Below, piece after piece: positions 51,756-64,000 of a stretch of DNA of 64,000 nucleotides (the stretch's first letter is position 1; each line of letters starts with the position of its first letter). A model generated the notes under the pieces. The model saw nothing but the letters and a program-made list of their open reading frames with translations. It was not told the DNA's origin and made no database searches. The DNA comes from Felixounavirus LF110P1: sequence record OZ035744.1, one strand, 5' to 3'. The translations under genes were made by a program, and so were the position numbers.

Positions 51756-52637
51756 ATGAAAACTGTTATTGAAGCCGTCATCACCGCACAAGAGAAATTC
51801 TTCCACACAGAAAAATTTAACATCATCCAATTCCCATCTGGAGAAATTGGTGGAAACTTCTCTGAAGATTTTGTTAAGTTTGCTGAGCGTAATGCTGGTA
51901 AGATTGATAATGTTATATTTACTGTACAGGGGTATGACAAAGATACACTGTTTGCATTAGCTTTGGCTAAGGATGCCGTTGACAGTCTTGTTCCCCAGAA
52001 ATCAGCGATGAAAACCGTTGTTTTCGGGTTCTTACCAAATGCTCGATATGACCGCCACATGTTCAAAGGTGATGCAGCAGCACTGAAAGTCTTTGCCAAC
52101 CTCGTTAATGCAATGGGTTTTGATGCAGTATGTGCTCTTGACCCTCACAGTAATGTTGCAGAAAACTTATTTAAGTGTTTTCAGAGCATGAAGCAAAAAG
52201 ATGTGGCAGTACACTTTGCAAGTGACCCACGCATTGATTTCTTAGTAGCCCCAGATGCAGGTGCAGCTAAGAAGACTGAAGATGCCGCTAAAGAGGTGGA
52301 TAAACCATATATCACAATGTCTAAAGTGCGTAACCTTAAGACTGGTGAAATTACTGGTATGCGAATCCTTGATGATGTTGATTTGACAGATAAAACCGTC
52401 ATGATTCTGGATGATATTTGTGATGGTGGGCGAACCTTCATAGAGGCAGCTAAACATCTTCGTGAAGCAGGTGCAAAACGTGTGGAACTCTATGTAACTC
52501 ATGGTATTTTCTCTAAAGGTGTTGAAAACTTACTTGACAATGGTATTGACCATATCTACACTACAAACTCTTTGGGTGAAGCTAAAGACCGTGGCTTAAC
52601 ACATTACGCCCAAGTTACTGTAGTAACTATTGATTGA
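51756..52637 (+). CDS. Ribose-phosphate pyrophosphokinase (Prs) family protein; could be canonical PRPP synthetase or an ADP-ribose pyrophosphokinase (Adps-like)
   Basis: PRPP-binding signature VMILDDICDGGRTF, plus FGFLPNARYDRH and LDPHS blocks aligning with Prs FGYARQDRR and DLHA. Confidence 0.8.
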   Translation: MKTVIEAVITAQEKFFHTEKFNIIQFPSGEIGGNFSEDFVKFAERNAGKIDNVIFTVQGYDKDTLFALALAKDAVDSLVPQKSAMKTVVFGFLPNARYDRHMFKGDAAALKVFANLVNAMGFDAVCALDPHSNVAENLFKCFQSMKQKDVAVHFASDPRIDFLVAPDAGAAKKTEDAAKEVDKPYITMSKVRNLKTGEITGMRILDDVDLTDKTVMILDDICDGGRTFIEAAKHLREAGAKRVELYVTHGIFSKGVENLLDNGIDHIYTTNSLGEAKDRGLTHYAQVTVVTID

Positions 52638-52646
52638 AACTTTATA

Positions 52647-52667
52647 GGGGCTTGAAAGCCCCATTTT
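52647..52667 (+). terminator. Hairpin between the Prs-like and NAMPT-like genes (weak terminator or attenuator)
   Basis: GGGGCTT gaa AAGCCCC followed by ATTTT. Confidence 0.35.
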
Positions 52668-52682
52668 GAGAGAGATTAAAAG

Positions 52683-54464
52683 ATGACTAAATCACTTTAT
52701 GCCGTACCAGCAGGTTTAAACGCAGATGCTTACAAATCTGGTCATGTTTACCAGTATCCTAGTGCAACAGAGTACTTGATGTTCAACCTGACACCACGTA
52801 GTGACAAATGGTTTAACAGCCCTTTGGCAATTGACGGTGTAGTGGCTTTTGGTATTCAACGTTTCGTTAAAGATTACTTGATAGACCATTGGAACGCCAC
52901 TTTCTTTGAACGTGACAAAAAAGAAGCAATTGACGAAATCTTAGAAGTCATGAACGGTGTTCTGGGCAAAGATGCTATTGGTCGAGAGCATTGGGAAGCA
53001 CTTCACGACTTAGGTTATCTGCCAGTCGAAGTATACGCTGTAGAAGAAGGCACAGTTGTTCCGATGCGTGTCCCAATGATTGTATTCCAGAACACTGTTT
53101 CAGGTTTCCATTGGGTAGCGGGGTATCTGGAAGATGCTTTCTCTGCTGAGATTTGGAAGGCTTGTACCATTGCAACTATTGCATTGCACTACAAACGTAT
53201 CTGTAAGAAGTGGGCTGACCTCACTTGTGACAACGACTTCCATTTACCTTATCAGTGCCATGACTTTGCTATGCGTGGTATGTCCGGCTTTACTGATGAC
53301 GCATTTAACGCTGTAGGTCACTTAACCAGCTTTAAAGGAACTGATAGCTTCCCTGCTGTATACACTGCTAAACGAATCTATGGTCAGTCTTACCCAATCT
53401 CTGATATTGGTAGTTCTGTACCAGCCACTGAACACTCTGTAATGTGTGCAAACATTGCTTGGGAAGGTGGTAATGAATTGATTGAAGATGAAAGACGCTT
53501 TAAAGGTGAGTTACAAACCTTCCGTCGTTTTTTAACAGAAACTTACCCAACTGGTATTGCAAGTGTTGTTTCAGATACTTATAATTTCTGGAGAACTGTA
53601 TCAGTCATATTACCAGAACTCCGTAAAGAGATTATGGAACGCAATGGCAAACTGGTAATTCGTCCTGATTCTGGAGACCCTGTGCATATTGTCACAGGAT
53701 ACAAAGCAATCCATTTAGAGTGTGCTAAAAAGGCTTATTACGAACACTTAAGCAAGCTTGAAGCCAGCGACACAATGTTGAATGCTGTTCTGAACATGAA
53801 GCTTGAAAACATCAATTATGGTATTGCTGGATGGCTACTGTCAGAAGGCTACGAAATGGTTGTTGACAGAGAAGACTTTGAAGTTGCTGATACAGTACTG
53901 CTGAAGAATGCTTATATGGTTGGTTCTGCAAACGTTGTAACACGTCCTGTAGCAGAGATTGATGGAGCTATTAAGACCCTGTATAACATCTTCGGAGGGA
54001 CTATCAACTCTAAAGGATTCAAGGTACTGGATGAGCATATCGGCCTTATCTATGGTGACTCTATCACGCTGGAACGTGCAAACGAAATCCTGAAGCGCCT
54101 TTATGAAATGGGTTTTGCAAGCTCTAACGTGGTGTTTGGTGTAGGCTCTTACACTTACCAGTACATGACTCGTGACACATTTGCATTTGCTGTCAAAGCA
54201 ACTCTTGCAAGCATTGGTGGTAAAGAGATTATGCTTGCAAAAGACCCTAAAACAGATAGCGGTGTTAAGAAATCTGCCTTTGGTGGTGTAGCGCCTATGT
54301 GGGACGGTGATAAACTGAAAGCTGTAGATGGCTACGGATTCCAGAGTTTTGCAGATGTACTTGACCACCAAGCTTGTGCTTTACGTTTAGTCTTTAGTGA
54401 CTCTGAGCAGTTTGGTTACACAACTCTTGGTGATATTCGAAATAATATTGACAAGCAGCTTTAA
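52683..54464 (+). CDS. Nicotinamide phosphoribosyltransferase (NAMPT/NadV) family protein; possibly Namat-like
   Basis: N-terminal NADAYKSGHVYQYP matches the NAMPT DSYKVTHYKQYP block; 593 aa, longer than I would expect for a typical NAMPT. Confidence 0.75.
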   Translation: MTKSLYAVPAGLNADAYKSGHVYQYPSATEYLMFNLTPRSDKWFNSPLAIDGVVAFGIQRFVKDYLIDHWNATFFERDKKEAIDEILEVMNGVLGKDAIGREHWEALHDLGYLPVEVYAVEEGTVVPMRVPMIVFQNTVSGFHWVAGYLEDAFSAEIWKACTIATIALHYKRICKKWADLTCDNDFHLPYQCHDFAMRGMSGFTDDAFNAVGHLTSFKGTDSFPAVYTAKRIYGQSYPISDIGSSVPATEHSVMCANIAWEGGNELIEDERRFKGELQTFRRFLTETYPTGIASVVSDTYNFWRTVSVILPELRKEIMERNGKLVIRPDSGDPVHIVTGYKAIHLECAKKAYYEHLSKLEASDTMLNAVLNMKLENINYGIAGWLLSEGYEMVVDREDFEVADTVLLKNAYMVGSANVVTRPVAEIDGAIKTLYNIFGGTINSKGFKVLDEHIGLIYGDSITLERANEILKRLYEMGFASSNVVFGVGSYTYQYMTRDTFAFAVKATLASIGGKEIMLAKDPKTDSGVKKSAFGGVAPMWDGDKLKAVDGYGFQSFADVLDHQACALRLVFSDSEQFGYTTLGDIRNNIDKQL

Positions 54465-58595: not shown

Positions 58596-58612
58596 TAAGT
58601 AATTTCTTAAAA

Positions 58613-58634
58613 GGCTGCTTCGGCGGCCTTTTTT
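58613..58634 (+). terminator. Rho-independent terminator after rIIB (TTCG tetraloop)
   Basis: GGCTGC ttcg GCGGCC followed by TTTTTT. Confidence 0.6.
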
Positions 58635-58635
58635 A

Positions 58636-58664
58636 TTTGTATTTTGTGCAGAGTGCTGTATAAT
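58636..58664 (+). promoter_or_regulatory. Candidate promoter with consensus -10 TATAAT
   Basis: TTTGTA (58636-58641), 17-bp spacer, TATAAT (58659-58664), upstream of the transglycosylase gene. Confidence 0.4.
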
Positions 58665-58695
58665 TGTTGTCACGATAAACTAAACAGGAGAACCA

Positions 58696-59244
58696 ATGAA
58701 GAAATTGATTCTAGGTTTGTGCTTAATGTTTACAGCACACTTATCTTATGCAGTTGACTGCCCAGAGCTATCAATTAGCCAAAAAGTAAACATGTTAAAA
58801 GCTTACCAGTATGGTGAGAACAACATGGGTAAAGGTTGGGGTATCACTCTAGCTGCTATAGCCTTACAAGAGTCAGAGTTAGGTCTGAAGGTAGAGAATA
58901 AAAAGACACATGATTATGGTATTTTCCAGAATCACTTGAAGACTGTTGTAAAGCGTAACAAAATTAGCCCTAATGTGGCTAAAAAGAAACTCTTAAAAGA
59001 CTTTGACTATGCTGCAAAGGAAACGCACAAAGAGCTTGAGTTTTGGACAAAGGTACATGGTCAGCCAAAGTCAAAGAAGACTTTACAAAAAGTTTTAGCA
59101 TCATATAATGCTGGGTATTCGTACAGAATCCCTAAAGCTAAGAAGTATTCTCAAGATGTCTATAACAACATGAAAGTTATTGCTCAATGTGAATTTGCAA
59201 CAAACATTTCTAAGGTAAATCATGAAAAAATTAAGAAAGTCTGA
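58696..59244 (+). CDS. Secreted lytic transglycosylase (SLT domain), candidate endolysin
   Basis: Signal-like N-terminus MKKLILGLCLMFTAHLSYA; SLT catalytic region AIALQESELG with downstream DYGIFQ. Confidence 0.7.
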   Translation: MKKLILGLCLMFTAHLSYAVDCPELSISQKVNMLKAYQYGENNMGKGWGITLAAIALQESELGLKVENKKTHDYGIFQNHLKTVVKRNKISPNVAKKKLLKDFDYAAKETHKELEFWTKVHGQPKSKKTLQKVLASYNAGYSYRIPKAKKYSQDVYNNMKVIAQCEFATNISKVNHEKIKKV

Positions 59245-59917
59245 TGAAGTACTGTGTCATGCTTATGACTTACATCCTCATGAGTTAGGTCTTAATTCCT
59301 GTGTATGGACTCCAGAACAGTGTAGGGATTTTGAAGACACTGCAAGAGAAGTTGTATGTTCACTCGAAGAGTTCCACACATCAGAGCCAATTGTGAATGT
59401 TGTAGATAAAGAGACTGGACAAACTATAGGCGTAAGTCGTGATAGCTTAGTCATAGTCAATAAAGACCTTGTAGAAAAAGGTAACCTTATCTTAGCAGAC
59501 ATTGATGGTGTTCTTACAAATTTTAATCACGAAGATTGCTCAACGGAATTGATTGATGGGTCATTTTCACAGTACACTAATTTGCTTGACTCTGTAAGTG
59601 CAAAGCCGACGTATGTTTTCAATATCATTGATGCAATTGCTAATCATGCTGCCATTGGACTCTTGACAGCTAGAGGTGAATCTCAGAGAATCCCTACTGA
59701 GATGTTTTTAAGGCATTACATAGAGCATGATTACATGCTTTTTATGCGTGGTTTTGGAACTAACTCTATAAGTGCAGAAAGTTTGAAAGTGAGGATGATT
59801 CAGTCTTGCATTCTGCCTTACTTTAATATAGTATGTTTTATAGAAGACACAGAGAAGAATGTGCAGAAGGTGAACAGAATCCTTCCACACATCAAAACCA
59901 TGTTAGTTAAACATTGA
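59222..59917 (+). CDS. HAD-superfamily phosphatase-like protein (putative nucleotidase)
   Basis: HAD motif I LILADIDGVL; 231 aa with the HAD-like part in the C-terminal two thirds. Confidence 0.4.
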   Translation: MKKLRKSDEVLCHAYDLHPHELGLNSCVWTPEQCRDFEDTAREVVCSLEEFHTSEPIVNVVDKETGQTIGVSRDSLVIVNKDLVEKGNLILADIDGVLTNFNHEDCSTELIDGSFSQYTNLLDSVSAKPTYVFNIIDAIANHAAIGLLTARGESQRIPTEMFLRHYIEHDYMLFMRGFGTNSISAESLKVRMIQSCILPYFNIVCFIEDTEKNVQKVNRILPHIKTMLVKH

Positions 59918-59927
59918 GAGAAAACTT

Positions 59928-60392
59928 ATGAACAATATCATTACGGTAGCACTGGACGTTACGGCAAACAAATCTGAAGTAGTTCGTAACATTATCAAGA
60001 GCAACTTTGAGGGTAAAATCTTCCGTGCTGTCAACGTAAAAGCAGACGGTAACATCCGAGAGTATCGTGCTCTTTTGAATGTTAAGAAACACGTAAAGGG
60101 TTCTGGCTCAACCACAGCACACAAAGAAAACCTGATGACTATCTATGATATGGGGATGGCTTCAGAATTAGGTGCTGAAGGTATCGTTAAAGAAGGTGCT
60201 CCGTATCGCTCTTTCAATCTGGAAACTGCTCTTATGCTTTCCTTTACAAGTGGTTCTAAAACAACTACTTATCTCTTTACTGATGCTGCAACGGTATCTG
60301 CTATCAAGGATAGCACTGTCAAAGCTGGGGTAGCTGCTGCTGCAAAAGCTTCTTCGATGGCTGCAAATGTCCTTGCTAAAGTCCTCGGTTAA
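59928..60392 (+). CDS. Hypothetical protein
   Basis: 154 aa, Ala/Ser/Thr-rich C-terminus; followed by a terminator. Confidence 0.35.
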   Translation: MNNIITVALDVTANKSEVVRNIIKSNFEGKIFRAVNVKADGNIREYRALLNVKKHVKGSGSTTAHKENLMTIYDMGMASELGAEGIVKEGAPYRSFNLETALMLSFTSGSKTTTYLFTDAATVSAIKDSTVKAGVAAAAKASSMAANVLAKVLG

Positions 60393-60403
60393 GGTTAAGA
60401 TAC

Positions 60404-60425
60404 AGGCTCCTTCGGGAGCCTTTTT
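60404..60425 (+). terminator. Rho-independent terminator (TTCG tetraloop)
   Basis: AGGCTCC ttcg GGAGCCT followed by TTTTT. Confidence 0.6.
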
Positions 60426-60444
60426 CATTTCAGGAGATTGTTAA

Positions 60445-60792
60445 ATGACATTTAAAGAGTTCTGTCAAGCTACTTTCATAATTGTTTTCTTAGTTGGGGC
60501 AGGTGTCTGGGGAGGATACTCTTACAGAGACTATCAAGTTGCTGAAACTGAGCTAAACAATCAAAAGCTCATAAGTGTTGCTAAAGATGCTTATCAGGAA
60601 GGATTAGTCACACTGAGCACCAATTACAAAAATGATTTGAAAGATGTGCTTGCTAAGAATAAGCATACAAAAGAGGTACTAACATATGAAAAAACTAAGC
60701 CAGAGTTTTATAATGTTTGTGTTACTGATAACTATGTCAGGGTGTTCAACGAACAAAGTGAACAGTACATTCAAAAACTCCCAAGTAAGTGA
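60445..60792 (+). CDS. i-spanin (Rz-like) candidate
   Basis: N-terminal transmembrane segment FIIVFLVGAGVWGGYSY then a helical periplasmic domain; 115 aa. Confidence 0.5.
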   Translation: MTFKEFCQATFIIVFLVGAGVWGGYSYRDYQVAETELNNQKLISVAKDAYQEGLVTLSTNYKNDLKDVLAKNKHTKEVLTYEKTKPEFYNVCVTDNYVRVFNEQSEQYIQKLPSK

Positions 60793-60955
60793 GAGTGATA
60801 AGTACACTCAAGAAGAGTCACGGTATATCATCAAAGGCAACACAGGCAGCGATGTAGCAGAAGCACTTGAGTTCTACCGTGACGGCTTTTACCAGTGTAC
60901 AATTAAAGCTAATAACCTTATTGACATGATTTTATTAGGGAATAAGCAGCAATGA
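60686..60955 (+). CDS. o-spanin (Rz1-like lipoprotein) candidate, overlapping the Rz-like gene in another frame
   Basis: Lipoprotein-type signal MKKLSQSFIMFVLLITMSGC with Cys after a lipobox-like TMSG; starts inside the i-spanin ORF. Confidence 0.45.
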   Translation: MKKLSQSFIMFVLLITMSGCSTNKVNSTFKNSQVSESDKYTQEESRYIIKGNTGSDVAEALEFYRDGFYQCTIKANNLIDMILLGNKQQ

Positions 60956-61221
60956 CAGAGAATCAAGACACTTTCTATGTAGAAGGTTACTTACTGTTAC
61001 CACGACCAAAAGAAACTTATATGCGAATCGACTTCTTACCAACCATTATGGATAATGTGATGTGTCATATCTTTATGCAAGGTGTCACAGCACAGCTTAA
61101 GCATGTTGGTAAAGAGTGCAAAATAAAGGTTGACACTCATCCAGAAATCAAAGAGAATCACTACACATGGTTCTTACCAGATTCTAAAGAAATCTTAGCA
61201 GTTCTTAAAACGAGGAAGTAA
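60952..61221 (+). CDS. Hypothetical protein
   Basis: 89 aa, coupled start. Confidence 0.3.
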   Translation: MTENQDTFYVEGYLLLPRPKETYMRIDFLPTIMDNVMCHIFMQGVTAQLKHVGKECKIKVDTHPEIKENHYTWFLPDSKEILAVLKTRK

Positions 61222-61223
61222 CT

Positions 61224-61550
61224 ATGCAGATTAATGGAAGAGATTTTGTAGCCGTTTACTACGAGAAAGATAAAGAGGTTGGTGTAGCACAAGTAACTTA
61301 CGGCAATGGTAAGTGGCTATATGGAACAATTGCAGTGGTCGGAACAAGAAGTGACACAAAAACTTTTAAAGATTGTGTTGACCTTCTTGAAGAATCCATT
61401 CAGAATCATTGGTGTCTGATATGGATGACTGACAACGAAGTGATAGAACGCTTCAAAAAGATTGATATCAGCATTGATAGTATTGAGCATGTTGATTTAT
61501 ATGAGCTAACTGAGAAGGTAAACTATGAAAGTAATACTAGCCAGAGATAA
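61224..61550 (+). CDS. Hypothetical protein
   Basis: 108 aa. Confidence 0.3.
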   Translation: MQINGRDFVAVYYEKDKEVGVAQVTYGNGKWLYGTIAVVGTRSDTKTFKDCVDLLEESIQNHWCLIWMTDNEVIERFKKIDISIDSIEHVDLYELTEKVNYESNTSQR

Positions 61551-61752
61551 AAAGACACGAAAGCTTATCAGGTCAGCAGTGTTCATTGGACGAAATGAGG
61601 TCATCCCATTTACAGCAAATGATGTGATAGCTTACAGGAAGAACTTAGTATTCACTGACTGCTTACGTGGCTTCATCTCTGAACCATTGGAAGACTTTAA
61701 AAGTCGTTGTGGTAAAGGTATCATCATTCAAGAGGCAATTATTCATGGCTGA
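61525..61752 (+). CDS. Hypothetical protein
   Basis: 75 aa. Confidence 0.3.
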   Translation: MKVILARDKKTRKLIRSAVFIGRNEVIPFTANDVIAYRKNLVFTDCLRGFISEPLEDFKSRCGKGIIIQEAIIHG

Positions 61753-61945
61753 CTTCTGTAAAGACTGTTCTATCGAAATGTTCGGACGTGATACAGGTGA
61801 CTTAAAAGGTCTTATCACTGAAGATGATTTTAAAGCTGGTTATGCAATGCCAGTAATCTGTGAAGGTTGTGGGTGCATCTGGGTAGACCATGAGGGGCAA
61901 CGTGTAAAACCTTCAGAAGATAAAGAATCTTGGGAGAGATGCTAA
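61745..61945 (+). CDS. Small zinc-binding protein (start at ATG 61745 within track ORF 61667..61945)
   Basis: MADFCKDCSIEMFG...VICEGCGCIWVDHEG: two Cys pairs. Confidence 0.35.
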   Translation: MADFCKDCSIEMFGRDTGDLKGLITEDDFKAGYAMPVICEGCGCIWVDHEGQRVKPSEDKESWERC

Positions 61946-62731
61946 ATGGGTATTGTAAAAATCATCAATGGTGATATCTTTGCTGCATTTGATAAAGGTA
62001 AGTTTGACATCATTGGTCATGGTTGTAACTGCATGAACCTAATGGGCGCAGGTATCGCTGACAAGATTTCTAAACTTTACCCAAAAGCATATGAGACCGA
62101 TACAGAAGTTTATCTCTATGCAGGTGGTATAGGTCACAAACCCTGTGAGAATTTACTAGGTAATTTCTCTGTAGCACGCTTAAAACAAGGTCGTATAGCT
62201 AACCTTTACACTCAGCTTAAGACTGGTAAAGATGCCCGATACAGTGCTTTAGAGTCATCTTTGAAACAGCTTAACAGATACTGTGAAGTTAATCAGTTGA
62301 AGAAAGTTGGTTTACCTATGATTGGTGCAGGTATCGGTGGACTTGACCCTCAAGCCATCACAGTTATCATCAATCAGGTGATGAAGAGTGTAGATGTTTA
62401 TCTGTATGTCTATGAAGGCGAGATGTACCACAAGTTACGCTCAGGTTGGAAGAACTACTGTGAACCAGAATACTTTGCAGGTGTAGCAGTGTTCACAGAT
62501 AACGCAGTTACCCTCTTCAGACGAAGAAAAGGTAAGATACATCAAAGTAACCCTCCGGTTGAAAAGATGTCTCTAAGTAACGCTCTAGTTACCCACCTGT
62601 CAAAGAGCAATCACAGAATTGCTGTAACATTTGGTAGTGATGCAGAAGCTTATATCTATGCAAGAACTGATGAGGATATCGAGGCAATCTTCTCTTCACC
62701 AGAAGTTACCTTCTTAGACGCAAAGAACTAA
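61946..62731 (+). CDS. Macro domain (ADP-ribose binding/processing) protein with a C-terminal extension
   Basis: INGDIF...DIIGHGCNCMNLMGAGIADKI and KVGLPMIGAGIGGL resemble the two macro-domain binding loops (VNAAN...GGGV and PAISTGIYG). Confidence 0.6.
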   Translation: MGIVKIINGDIFAAFDKGKFDIIGHGCNCMNLMGAGIADKISKLYPKAYETDTEVYLYAGGIGHKPCENLLGNFSVARLKQGRIANLYTQLKTGKDARYSALESSLKQLNRYCEVNQLKKVGLPMIGAGIGGLDPQAITVIINQVMKSVDVYLYVYEGEMYHKLRSGWKNYCEPEYFAGVAVFTDNAVTLFRRRKGKIHQSNPPVEKMSLSNALVTHLSKSNHRIAVTFGSDAEAYIYARTDEDIEAIFSSPEVTFLDAKN

Positions 62732-62804
62732 GAAACTCTGTAGTATATTCACAATAGCCTAAGCCTTTCTTATCTGGTAAATTTTTCAGGTAAGGAGGGC
62801 TTTT

Positions 62805-62984
62805 TCATTTTAGAATTGTGCAGGTAGAGTTCTGTAGAGAAATCTGTAGAGAGAATTTTGAACTCCAAAGAGAAAATTCATTTTCAAACTGTGCAGGTAA
62901 TCTCCAAAGAGCTTTTTCATTTTCAAAACGTGCAGACCCCGCTCAGGTCGGGCAAGAAAAATCATTTTAGAATTGTGCAGGTAG
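62805..62984. repeat. Four iteron-like direct repeats, consensus TCATTTT(AG/CA)AA(T/C)TGTGCAGGTA
   Basis: Copies at 62805-62827, 62878-62900, 62917-62938, 62962-62984; also tandem CTGTAGAGA at 62831-62839 and 62843-62851. Confidence 0.6.
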
Positions 62985-63000
62985 GTTTTTATAGACAGCC

Positions 63001-63040
63001 AGCCCAACACCTCTCCCCCTCTTACTCCCCCTCTCCCAAA
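63001..63040 (+). other. Polypyrimidine C-rich tract
   Basis: CCCAACACCTCTCCCCCTCTTACTCCCCCTCTCCC on the plus strand, G-rich on the minus strand. Confidence 0.5.
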
Positions 63041-63159
63041 AAGTCAAGAGAAAAATTTGTAGCGGATTGAAAAATAATTCTTGATTTGCGTTCTGTTTTG
63101 TGGTAGTCGTGCGCACCCGTTTCATTACAGTTTTGCCAAAAATATTTTTAAAATTTTTA

Positions 63160-63188
63160 TTGACTCTTTGAACGTGGTTATCTAATAT
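63160..63188 (+). promoter_or_regulatory. Sigma70-like promoter TTGACT-17-TAATAT
   Basis: TTGACT 63160-63165, 17-bp spacer, TAATAT 63183-63188, preceded by an AT-rich UP-like region. Confidence 0.5.
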
Positions 63189-63251
63189 TTACATCAACGG
63201 GGAGGGAATGACCTTCCCCACTAAATAAAATCCTAAACTGGAGATTCAAAA

Positions 63252-63440
63252 ATGGCATCAAGAAAAATTAAAGTTGGCGATGAGGTTAACATTAAGCACG
63301 AATACTCTTACAAAATGCTAACTATACGCTCTTATAAGGTTTATCAGGTGGAAGCTATCCACAAAGATAATACTTTTTCCTTAAAAGGGTATAGCGAACG
63401 TTTCCCTGCTGAACTCTTTGAGAAATGGAGCGCGAAATAA
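63252..63440 (+). CDS. Hypothetical small protein
   Basis: 62 aa; GGAG RBS. Confidence 0.35.
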   Translation: MASRKIKVGDEVNIKHEYSYKMLTIRSYKVYQVEAIHKDNTFSLKGYSERFPAELFEKWSAK

Positions 63441-63646
63441 TGCTTTACAGTCGTGAATTGATGGTTACAACTAACGTTAACACAAAGGTAAAACGTTTTT
63501 ACATGCAAATTTGTGGCGTATGGTCTAGAATATCAGAAGCTGACTATTGCAACTATGTAGAAACAGCTATAAACTCTAATTGCTACCTTACAAGAAATAC
63601 TAAGAATTTTACAAGGCAAACAGCGATTTACTATTACGATAAATAA
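63425..63646 (+). CDS. Hypothetical small protein
   Basis: 73 aa, overlapping start. Confidence 0.3.
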   Translation: MEREIMLYSRELMVTTNVNTKVKRFYMQICGVWSRISEADYCNYVETAINSNCYLTRNTKNFTRQTAIYYYDK

Positions 63647-63736
63647 AAGTACTTTACATGGGGCTTATAGTTCGATAAAGTAAGCCCCAGATAAAGAGCT
63701 TTACCAAATTAACCCTTAAACTAGGAGATTCAAAAA

Positions 63737-64000
63737 TGGCATATCGTGCACCTAAATTCATCAACAAAGACAACTTTCGCAACGCACTGGAGAAGTCACT
63801 TGATGAAAATTTTAAAGGCAACATTATCGTTGTTCACGCATTCAATTTTAAGTATGATGTAAACGGGAATAGAATCAACCATTACACGGCAACCATGTTA
63901 GATGGCACACTATCAAGTGAAAAAGCCGTACTAAATGCACTGGCAGGACGTGGAAAGGTATTAGTAAGATGTGATAAGAGACGTTATCAGGGCGGTGCAT
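63737..64000 (+). CDS. Hypothetical protein, 3'-truncated by the window end
   Basis: ORF beginning MAYRAPKFINKDNF with an AGGAG RBS; runs off the window. Confidence 0.35.

Follow-up and report, generated by a model that had tools for sequence, protein, structure and literature searches.

A Felixounavirus macro domain fused to an orphan C-terminal domain: a probable two-domain counter-defence enzyme

The role of phage macro domains as counter-defence enzymes was demonstrated only recently, and two activities have been credited to close relatives of the protein described here: removal of ADP-ribose from DNA (T4 Tk.4) and dephosphorylation of ADPR-1''-phosphate feeding NARP1 (Adpp). The Felix O1-like protein stands between these two activities, since it has a loop of the Tk.4 type and yet comes from the lineage (Bas63) in which NARP1 was discovered, and it carries an additional C-terminal domain (CTD). 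Which ADP-ribose derivative is acted on by this protein, and what is its additional domain for? These questions were addressed for a gene found in a stretch of 64,000 nt of a Felixounavirus genome (the window).

In the list of open reading frames of the window, the macro-CTD gene (61946..62731, + strand) starts with ATG and encodes 261 aa, exactly as delimited in the first-pass annotation. It is the orthologue of bas63_0095, annotated as a 'putative phosphatase' in Bas63, and shows 98.7% nucleotide identity with Felixounavirus records. The name 'phosphatase' is also the common database annotation of this gene. A ribosome-binding site (GGGAGAG; 61932..61938, + strand), read from the sequence, is located 7 nt 5' of the ATG, and a terminator-like hairpin with a T-tract (62761..62812, + strand), detected in a terminator scan, ends the transcription unit. 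The adjoining upstream gene (61745..61945, + strand), whose stop codon (61943-61945) directly precedes the ATG of the macro-CTD gene, encodes a zinc-ribbon-like protein of 66 aa with a CxxC...CxxCxC pattern. This small protein is kept among Felixounaviruses; it was considered as an obligate partner of the macro-CTD protein and rejected, as it is not present upstream of the homologue in Pectobacterium phage Wc4.

The N-terminal part of the protein (aa 1-156; 61946..62413, + strand) was delimited as a macro domain by Pfam, AlphaFold2 (AF2), Foldseek and the DarG model of PADLOC, which bears out the first-pass proposal of such a domain at this end. Pfam Macro (PF01661) matched aa 25-138 (E=3.9e-7; 30.5 bits against a gathering cut-off of 22) and PHROG 335, a family of phage macro 'phosphatases', matched aa 1-260 (E=5.5e-113; profile positions 53-312 of 422). 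The PHROG 335 profile spans the CTD as well as the macro domain. When the family profile was compared with the PDB, TARG1 (E=4e-17), DarG (4.8e-16) and Poa1p (4e-15) were retrieved. The AF2 model of the 261-aa protein (mean pLDDT 90, pTM 0.89; pLDDT mostly 84-97 in the macro domain) came out with a macro fold, and its top Foldseek match was again TARG1 (E=3.4e-10, target-normalised TM 0.81-0.84), followed by DarG and Poa1p (0.75-0.84 across the matches to all three). In this model, aa 1-156 are confirmed as a three-layer alpha/beta macro fold with both glycine-rich loops and an intact predicted ADP-ribose pocket. Among defence libraries the matches were to DarG models only (PADLOC, E=9.8e-13; NCBIfam, E=2.4e-12). 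As judged from these sequence comparisons, the class of the domain is that of TARG1, Poa1p and DarG, and within this class it falls in a phage-specific branch; of the comparison with MacroD and DarG suggested in the first pass, the likeness to DarG stood and the MacroD class did not. Matches to the macro domain were obtained in 2,849 phage records.

Both glycine-rich motifs recognised earlier are present, loop 1 (GHGCNCMNLMGAGIA, aa 24-38; 62015..62059, + strand) in alignments with DarG, TARG1 and PhiKZ AdfM, and loop 2 (VGLPMIGAGIGG, aa 121-132; 62306..62341, + strand) in the alignment with TARG1. Among 31 homologues, the invariant residues were H25, G26, N28, C29, M33, G36 and A38 in loop 1 and P124, G127 and G129 in loop 2, and the G34-A35-G36 and I126-G127-A128-G129 loops were invariant or nearly so. 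H25 corresponds to H23 of Poa1p and H32 of TARG1, N28 aligns with N22 of DarG (Taq), and G131 occupies the position of TARG1 D125. A further motif, Y88-T89-Q90, with the 7-residue loop that follows it (62207..62239, + strand), was placed by the TARG1 profile alignment and a table of loop lengths. Q90 lies at the position of DarG (Taq) K80 and TARG1 K84, and this Gln is invariant across the clade, as are H25 and N28. The signature of the phage branch is H-G-C-N-C, M-G-A-G-I-A, N-L-Y-T-Q and I-G-A-G-I-G-G. Thr89 and a post-Gln90 loop of 7 residues are common to Tk.4, DarG, TARG1 and PhiKZ AdfM.

The remaining 105 residues (aa 157-261; 62414..62728, + strand) constitute a separate, mostly beta domain, for which the AF2 model predicts a linker helix, six beta strands and a C-terminal helix, and in which P174, G179 and Y236 are the most conserved residues. 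The C-terminal ~100 aa had been described earlier as devoid of any recognised motif, and the CTD is indeed an orphan, with no match in Pfam and no detectable relative outside the macro clade. A search of 1.84 billion representatives with the CTD HMM gave 10 matches. The domain was found only in fusion with its own macro clade; the matches lacking a macro domain, to giant repetitive proteins (with retrotransposon, YDG/MBG or sortilin repeats) or to a 376-aa tandem repeat, were judged spurious. Three more specific identities of the CTD were considered and rejected. These are: (i) a divergent form of the cyclic-phosphate-processing domain cREC_REC (PF20274), which is fused to a macro domain of the same clade in the relative P0026 (hhalign probability 0.05%; predicted topology mostly beta, not alpha/beta), (ii) a relative of the aRES inhibitor aRad1 (hhalign probability 0.08%; no aRad1-like ORF was found in the window) and (iii) a DNA binder or DNA mimic, the net charge being near-neutral and variable among homologues (-6 to +4) and therefore indicating no clear character of either kind. 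A PH-like fold is a further, tentative candidate for the CTD. Conservation of the CTD extends over Ounavirinae-like phages. The domain is subject to purifying selection (dN/dS 0.11-0.16) but evolves faster than the macro domain, on which this selection is very strong (dN/dS 0.01-0.04). A folded extra domain retained in this way would be more in keeping with a macromolecular partner or substrate than with a small metabolite.

The macro-CTD gene occurs in two alleles, that of the window and the Si3/VpaE1_ev035 type, the proteins of which are 41.5% identical in genomes that are otherwise 92-96% identical. In the allele comparison (blastn of window positions 58600-64000 against L013), nucleotide similarity to the congeneric VpaE1_ev035 was lost over a replacement segment (62090..62784, + strand), within which it was left in a single patch of 113 nt (72%), with flanks at 92-96%; the 66-aa upstream protein was identical at 66/66 positions in the same comparison. 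The most divergent part between the alleles is the CTD. Such an allelic dimorphism is suggestive of an arms-race-like signature.

We infer from these features that the gene encodes an active ADP-ribose 1''-hydrolase that counters host defence, to which we assign a probability of about 0.8. The macro domain would bind ADP-ribose and hydrolyse the group on the 1'' carbon of its distal ribose, and the CTD would be a lineage-specific accessory module, packed against the macro domain and probably serving to recognise a macromolecular substrate or partner. The product would be a two-domain counter-defence enzyme of a known kind, with the orphan CTD as the new addition. That the gene is a candidate counter-defence factor had already been proposed in the first-pass annotation, and the proposal gained weight from two PHROG 335 relatives with a shared signature for which counter-defence has been shown, i.e. 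T4 Tk.4 (against DarTG2) and Adpp (against aRES). The candidate substrates are DNA-linked ADP-ribose and ADPR-1''-phosphate, respectively. The likeliest role would be that of Tk.4 (also AdfM, anti-DarT factor macrodomain), namely stripping from phage DNA the ADP-ribose put there by a DarT2-like host ADP-ribosyltransferase, so that replication could go ahead. Deletion of tk.4 sensitised T4 to DarTG2, the evidence being genetic and presented in a preprint (HIDEN-SEQ; bioRxiv 10.1101/2025.11.20.689424). By analogy, DNA-linked ADP-ribose produced by DarT2 is a plausible but tentative specific target of the Felixounavirus protein, held at somewhat under even odds. Among the points against it, the catalytic Lys of DarG and TARG1 is an invariant Gln here, and the sole biochemically measured Gln-type member of the clade, Adpp, is a phosphatase (10.64898/2026.01.28.702374). 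Because Gln stands in place of DarG K80/TARG1 K84 and Gly in place of TARG1 D125, the known chemistry of thymine-linked ADP-ribose cleavage is absent. A literature search found no published data on the sensitivity of Felixounaviruses to DarTG2.

The best surviving alternative involves the NAD-metabolism pair which the first-pass annotation had noticed in the same genome. The pair was located on the same strand as the macro-CTD gene and refined to NARP1 (operon at 51756..54464, + strand; Adps 51756-52637, Namat 52683-54464), with Pfam matches to Pribosyl_synth and NAPRTase/NAMPT_N and with 94.4% nucleotide identity to genes 79-80 of Bas63, the congeneric phage in which NARP1 (Adps and Namat) was first described; the operon was present in only four BASEL phages. 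An interpretation of this pair (Prs-like and Nampt-like) as NARP2 was rejected on account of its identity with these Bas63 genes. An Adpp-like enzyme would take the ADPR-1''-phosphate made by RES-type NAD+ phosphorylases (e.g. aRES) and dephosphorylate it to ADPR, from which NARP1 would rebuild NAD+. In that case Felix O1-like phages would be natural 'NARP1-AP' phages with a phosphatase coded off-operon. We regard such a role, in both of its parts, as possible but rather unlikely. It draws on the presence of an orthologue of the founding operon in the same genome, on the wide labelling of the gene as a phosphatase, and on the finding that Poa1p-like macro genes adjoin 15% of NARP1 operons, the one of Vibrio phage Gary (KNV71_gp137, Adpp) converting ADPR-1P to ADPR in vitro (10.64898/2026.01.28.702374). 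The motifs H-x-C/A-N-C, M-G-x-G-I-A, Gln at position 90 and I-G-x-G-x-x-G-G are shared with the NARP1-linked macros (27-36% identity), and the scores of those from phages JG004 (75 bits) and phiPsa374 (69 bits, 36% identity) nearly reach that of Tk.4.

The position of the gene bears on the Adpp-like role in both directions. The order of NARP1 and the macro-CTD gene is conserved in distant relatives, phage Wc4 and partly one metagenomic contig, but this co-occurrence may be plain inherited synteny of one lineage. The gene lies outside the operon, 15 genes (~7.5 kb) further downstream and beyond the two genes within which Adpp is recognised, and the terminator scan placed at least one terminator-like hairpin between them; the published survey did not go further than two genes from the operon (10.64898/2026.01.28.702374), so a macro gene 15 genes off would have escaped it. 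Further differences were found in the protein itself. All 11 NARP1-linked macros examined have an aromatic-rich post-Gln loop of 11-14 residues (an empirical feature of these 11 proteins, not a published definition) and 10 of them have G/A/S, usually Gly, at the position of Thr89, whereas the Felix O1-like protein lacks the long loop and keeps the Thr. Moreover, Adpp is a single-domain protein, a small metabolite gives no evident reason for a CTD, and the short-loop macro clade is plentiful among records of T4-like phages, in which the absence of NARP1 is inferred from the NARP1 paper. Phylogeny was also tried as a means of choosing between Tk.4 and Adpp; in the neighbour-joining distance tree (100 bootstraps) the deep nodes had <60% support, and kinship with Tk.4 and with NARP1-linked macros was not separated.

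It is unlikely that the enzyme erases some other ADP-ribose conjugate or signal, such as ADP-ribose attached to phage or host proteins or RNA by other host transferases (e.g. CmdT-like mRNA ADP-ribosyltransferases), O-acetyl-ADP-ribose from sirtuin-type defences, or the ADPR-based immune signals His-ADPR and isomers of cyclic ADPR. TARG1, which gave the best PDB match, is active on ADP-ribose linked to proteins and on O-acetyl-ADP-ribose, and a partner-recognising CTD and the allelic dimorphism would fit any macromolecular target; against this, no relative within the clade is tied to such substrates, the catalytic dyad of TARG1 is absent, and those parts of the neighbourhood that were examined showed no ADP-ribosyltransferase, no Thoeris-related gene and no other clue from context. 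The involvement of cyclic ADPR, suggested in the first pass, found no specific support. Members of the macro superfamily act on the full spectrum of ADP-ribose derivatives with 1'' or 2'' linkage, and these activities can rarely be told apart from sequence alone (PMC9503650). Comparably doubtful is a bolder version of the partner-recognition idea, in which the CTD would be a new fold binding a host defence protein, e.g. a DarT2-like or RES-like NAD+-using toxin, and the whole protein a phage-built analogue of DarG. Just as doubtfully, one module of such an analogue would erase the product and the unrelated second module would block the enzyme, the two alleles being matched to different toxin variants.

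A housekeeping function in RNA repair, in which ADP-ribose 1''-phosphate from a Tpt1/KptA-type 2'-phosphotransferase active in tRNA repair would be cleared in the manner of yeast Poa1p together with a HAD_PNKP-like gene, is very improbable. The Poa1p-like signature and profile match (E=4e-15), the location of the HAD_PNKP-like 'polynucleotide kinase' gene (59222-59917) ~2 kb upstream of the macro-CTD gene, with the proximity kept in distant relatives, and the fusion with cREC_REC in P0026 would agree with it. Nevertheless, inherited synteny may account for the proximity, the HAD-like protein lacks a kinase domain and any Pfam match at E<=0.01, no tRNA genes were found in the window, and the annotated genes in the right-hand 46 kb of EC6, a related phage, include neither an RNA ligase nor Tpt1/KptA. 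The Pnkp/Rnl pathway of T4 is not known to leave a 2'-phosphate, which also counts against such a function. There is equally little to recommend a non-catalytic reader or sponge that only binds ADP-ribose derivatives, in a sequestering or adaptor role: the TARG1 Lys and Asp and the DarG Lys are absent, but Adpp, a relative of the Gln type, is an active enzyme, and the invariance of H25, N28 and Q90 together with the low dN/dS of the macro domain fits a catalytic site better.

The preferred reading, a 1''-hydrolase directed against host defence, concerns more than a single gene. Bas63 is genetically tractable, Cas13a editing having already been applied to it, and at stake are the activity of the widespread short-loop, Gln-type clade and a first function for the orphan CTD; if the outcome is an ordinary one, the gain will be an annotation better than 'phosphatase'.

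How does the protein compare with the known systems? Human TARG1/OARD1 and yeast Poa1p, its best matches among solved structures by both sequence and fold, share with it the His of H-x-C-x-x, but they are single-domain cellular proteins, and the K84 and D125 of TARG1 correspond to Gln90 and Gly131. DarG2 has the macro class, the Asn28/N22 equivalence and the post-catalytic loop length in common with it, and an analogous architecture with the macro domain at the N-terminus and a second domain at the C-terminus. The likeness is confined to the first of these domains: the score against the DarG2 equivalog (NCBIfam NF048014) was 46.8 bits, compared with a cut-off of 250, and since the DarG models match the macro part alone (profile positions 4-154 for NCBIfam and 18-146 for PADLOC), the CTD is not related to the domain by which DarG binds DarT; the macro-CTD gene has no DarT neighbour. 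DarG and the chimallivirus AdfM (PhiKZ gp104; Cell Rep 2026, PMC13309987) form a separate clade (100% support) with a catalytic Lys where the Felix O1-like protein has Gln. Adpp, the NARP1-associated ADPR-1''-phosphate phosphatase acting against aRES (bioRxiv 10.64898/2026.01.28.702374), is a Poa1p-like phage macro with equivalents of His25, Asn28 and Gln90 and is 27-36% identical to family members, but it is encoded in or beside the NARP1 operon and has the long aromatic-rich loop and mostly Gly at the Thr89 position. The top tblastn score among the characterised relatives (82 bits) belongs to T4 Tk.4, also a member of PHROG 335, with 35% identity over its whole 155 aa (E=2e-24). Its signature (H-G-C-N-C, M-G-x-G-[IV]-A, N-L-Y-T-Q, a 7-residue post-Gln loop and I-G-A-G-I-G) matches that of the Felix O1-like protein. 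The genomic context differs, tk.4 being located between vs and tk.3 in T4, and so does the architecture, as Tk.4 is a bare macro domain that stops exactly where the CTD of the Felix O1-like protein starts.

The macro-domain gene (61946-62731, + strand) encodes a 261-aa protein composed of a macro domain (residues 1-156) and a C-terminal domain (CTD, residues 157-261), hereafter the macro-CTD protein. A ribosome-binding site (GGGAGAG) on the same strand lies 7 nt upstream of its ATG start codon, which is directly abutted by the TAA stop of a preceding 66-aa ORF. The gene is followed by a terminator-like hairpin (62761-62802) and is therefore the last gene of a co-directional unit beginning after another hairpin (60404-60421). 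The genome belongs to a Felixounavirus, that is, a Felix O1-like myophage; the 2.5 kb surrounding the gene share 98.7% identity with Felixounavirus LF82P5 and Escherichia phage ekra, and are matched by 242 phage records. In public records the orthologue is named "phosphatase", "macro domain protein" or "O-acetyl-ADP-ribose deacetylase", and in the model phage Bas63 (JohannRWettstein) it is bas63_0095. The 66-aa protein (61745-61945), whose stop codon adjoins the macro-CTD ATG, carries a zinc-ribbon-like CxxC...CxxCxC pattern and has no family match. It is identical at 66/66 positions in phage VpaE1_ev035, despite only 41% identity of the downstream macro gene, but is not retained ahead of the macro-CTD homologue in Pectobacterium phage Wc4.

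Both glycine-rich motifs on which the first-pass annotation had based its macro-domain assignment are present (aa 24-38 and aa 121-132), and the full-length AlphaFold2 model, for which 31 homologues were used, shows a macro fold (mean pLDDT 90, pTM 0.89). The Pfam Macro match exceeds the curated cut-off and the PHROG 335 match spans the whole protein (E=5.5e-113); the macro domain is a member of a known and very common phage family. The best Foldseek match in the PDB was human TARG1 (E=3.4e-10, target-normalised TM 0.81-0.84), the others being the DarG macro domains of Thermus aquaticus and Mycobacterium tuberculosis and yeast Poa1p, and the family profile retrieved the same three by sequence (TARG1 4e-17, DarG 4.8e-16 and Poa1p 4e-15). 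This places the domain in the TARG1/Poa1p/DarG class, not in the MacroD class.

Residues invariant in the 31 homologues (H25, G26, N28, C29, M33, G36, A38, P46, G72, N86, L87, T89, Q90, P124, G127 and G129) cover both ADP-ribose-binding loops and the Y-T-Q motif. In the alignment, N28 is the equivalent of DarG N22, Q90 stands opposite DarG K80, TARG1 K84 and PhiKZ AdfM K78, and G131 opposite TARG1 D125. The ADP-ribose pocket is therefore intact but, with Gln90 in place of Lys, lacks the lysine-based chemistry that DarG and TARG1 use. The same H-G-A-N-C / N-L-Y-T-Q macro clade has a different C-terminal partner in a 339-aa metagenomic protein (P0026), where it is joined to a cREC_REC "cyclic-phosphate processing receiver" domain (PF20274, E=4.7e-7). 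In the N4-like Vibrio phage 1.188.A (3498-7435), rIIA-like and rIIB genes directly follow a macro gene of the clade, and in Felix O1-like phages rIIA and rIIB are found a few kb before the macro gene; this proximity may be a coincidence.

For the C-terminal part, in which no motif had been recognised, the searches yielded no relatives outside its own family. The CTD gave no match in Pfam or NCBIfam, and when 1.84 billion representative proteins were screened with a profile built from 16 CTDs, the only hits were the same macro-fused family, its fragments and a few repetitive giant proteins, judged spurious. The BFVD search returned only the domain's own family, from phage SUSP2. Relationships to the cREC domain of P0026, the DarG C-terminal domain and aRad1 were ruled out. 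The full-length model gives the CTD six beta strands besides a linker helix (158-167) and a C-terminal helix (243-249), at pLDDT values of about 80-93; modelled alone, the CTD showed the same secondary structure (pLDDT 77). The full-length pTM of 0.89 suggests that it packs on the macro domain. The two-domain form occurs only in Ounavirinae-like myophages of about 85-92 kb (Felixounavirus, Moogle-like, Susp-like and Pectobacterium Wc4/Arno phages), with approximately 257 records versus 2,849 phage records for the macro domain alone.

The CTD is a protein domain under selection, with a dN/dS within the genus of 0.11-0.16, compared with 0.01-0.04 for the macro domain. It diverges about twice as fast as the macro domain (54% vs 81% identity in homologue P0002, 19% vs 43% in P0013), and only P174, G179 and Y236 are nearly invariant. 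Its net charge varies across homologues from -6 to +4 and therefore gives no pointer to a DNA-binding or DNA-mimicking character. Salmonella phage Si3, VpaE1_ev035 and further contigs of ~88 kb carry a second allele, the P0009 cluster, whose protein shares only 41.5% identity with the one encoded in the window. In VpaE1_ev035 the flanks of the gene are 92-96% identical to the window at the nucleotide level, while similarity is lost from ~62090 to ~62784, except for a 113-nt patch around loop 2; the CTD is the most divergent part between the two alleles (23% identity). Loci that engage variable host factors commonly show such a swap of a single gene within a block that is otherwise conserved. 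This orphan, selected and fast-evolving CTD and the allele replacement are new.

Directly after the terminator-like hairpin, the 19-nt motif TCATTTTMRAAHYGTGCAG is present in four copies within 62805-62980 (starts at 62805, 62878, 62917 and 62962, all on the + strand), with no further copies in the 64-kb window (0.02 expected by chance). They could serve the small genes of the block that follows as operators, promoters or iteron-like sites; VpaE1_ev035 has a similar repeated region. Annotations of tiny ORFs in 62800-63100 conflict on strand and existence (the counterpart has two minus-strand ORFs in Bas63 vs three plus-strand ORFs in SeKF_63), and the region may be non-coding regulatory DNA. 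Two small ORFs lying 484 nt from each other share another exact 19-nt repeat, GGAGATTCAAAAATGGCAT (63240-63258 and 63724-63742), which extends across their ribosome-binding sites and start codons; this suggests paralogous or recombining small early genes.

The NAD-metabolism pair reported in the same genome is indeed there and is specifically NARP1: the Prs-like (Adps, 51756-52637) and Nampt-like (Namat, 52683-54464) genes together (51756-54464) share 94.4% nucleotide identity with genes 79-80 of Bas63, also a Felixounavirus, the operon in which NARP1 was discovered (bioRxiv 10.1101/2024.02.11.579819). Adps and Namat rebuild NAD+ from ADPR and nicotinamide, not through the PRPP/NMN pathway (bioRxiv 10.1101/2024.02.11.579819). 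The pair being a NARP1 orthologue, its public labels (ribose-phosphate pyrophosphokinase and nicotinamide phosphoribosyltransferase) are functionally misleading. Bas63 offers an unusually direct experimental test for the macro-CTD protein. The macro-CTD gene lies 15 genes downstream of NARP1 on the same strand, beyond the two-gene radius scanned in the study of aRES, a defence countered with Adpp. Phage Wc4 keeps the order Adps-Namat-rIIA-rIIB-...-SLT-like-HAD_PNKP-like-...-macro-CTD, and, in the parts compared, so do the metagenomic contigs of P0019 (Namat onward) and P0013 (rIIB onward), with macro-part identities in these relatives of only about 35-42%. The gene at 59222-59917, whose position about 2 kb ahead of the macro-CTD gene is retained over this deep divergence, encodes a 231-aa protein called "polynucleotide kinase" in related records. 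It has no Pfam match at E<=0.01 and its distant homologues give only weak or faint HAD_PNKP matches; it resembles a HAD domain of the phosphatase type, with no sign of a kinase domain.

The proposed role as an ADP-ribose eraser and candidate counter-defence factor is upheld by homology to proteins whose characterisation dates from 2025-2026. Three phage macro proteins in PHROG 335, or with its signature, have experimental support. PhiKZ gp104 (AdfM) strips DarT2-made ADP-ribose off DNA (Cell Rep 2026, PMC13309987); it is DarG-like, has the lysine and groups with DarG at 100% support, at a distance from the macro-CTD protein. T4 Tk.4 (also AdfM) is needed for T4 growth on DarTG2, as found by transposon sequencing and a clean knock-out (bioRxiv 10.1101/2025.11.20.689424). 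The T4 match was confirmed to be the gene flanked by vs and tk.3, a PHROG 335 member; it shares 35% identity with the macro-CTD protein over the entire 155 aa of Tk.4 (E=2e-24) and stops exactly where the CTD starts. Adpp is a Poa1p-like macro protein adjoining 15% of NARP1 operons; the one from Vibrio phage Gary converts ADPR-1''-phosphate to ADPR and enables NARP1 to overcome aRES (bioRxiv 10.64898/2026.01.28.702374). Gary Adpp is 27% identical to the macro-CTD protein and 35% to Tk.4, and other NARP1-linked macro sequences (Table S1 of bioRxiv 10.64898/2026.01.28.702374) are 30-36% identical to the former.

A Tk.4-like role is our first-ranked reading, at a probability of roughly 40%. A neighbour-joining tree of 36 macro domains recovered the macro-CTD and DarG/PhiKZ groups (100% each), with no supported placing of the macro-CTD clade relative to Tk.4 vs NARP1-linked macros. 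Similarity scores to the macro-CTD protein lay close together, with 82 bits for Tk.4, 75 for JG004, 69 for phiPsa374, 67 for phiAbaA1 and 53 for Gary. The DarG lysine is missing, which counts against a Tk.4-like role, as does the fact that the phosphatase reaction is the sole biochemistry measured among Gln-type members. An Adpp-like role is ranked second and is rather unlikely. The two roles are not necessarily mutually exclusive, since each reaction detaches a substituent from the same carbon. What places the Tk.4-like role above the Adpp-like one is Thr89, together with the one discrete character separating Tk.4-like from NARP1-linked macros, the loop after the conserved Gln. Since this loop comes after the catalytic residue in TARG1 and DarG, it is expected from the alignment to lie near the 1''-linked group. 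It has 7 residues in the macro-CTD protein, every macro-CTD homologue, T4 Tk.4, DarG, TARG1 and PhiKZ AdfM, whereas in all 11 NARP1-linked macros examined it is aromatic-rich and 11-14 residues long, and in 10 of these 11 Thr89 is replaced by Gly, Ala or Ser. A protein in the founding NARP1 lineage, yet with a Tk.4-type active-site loop, is likewise new.
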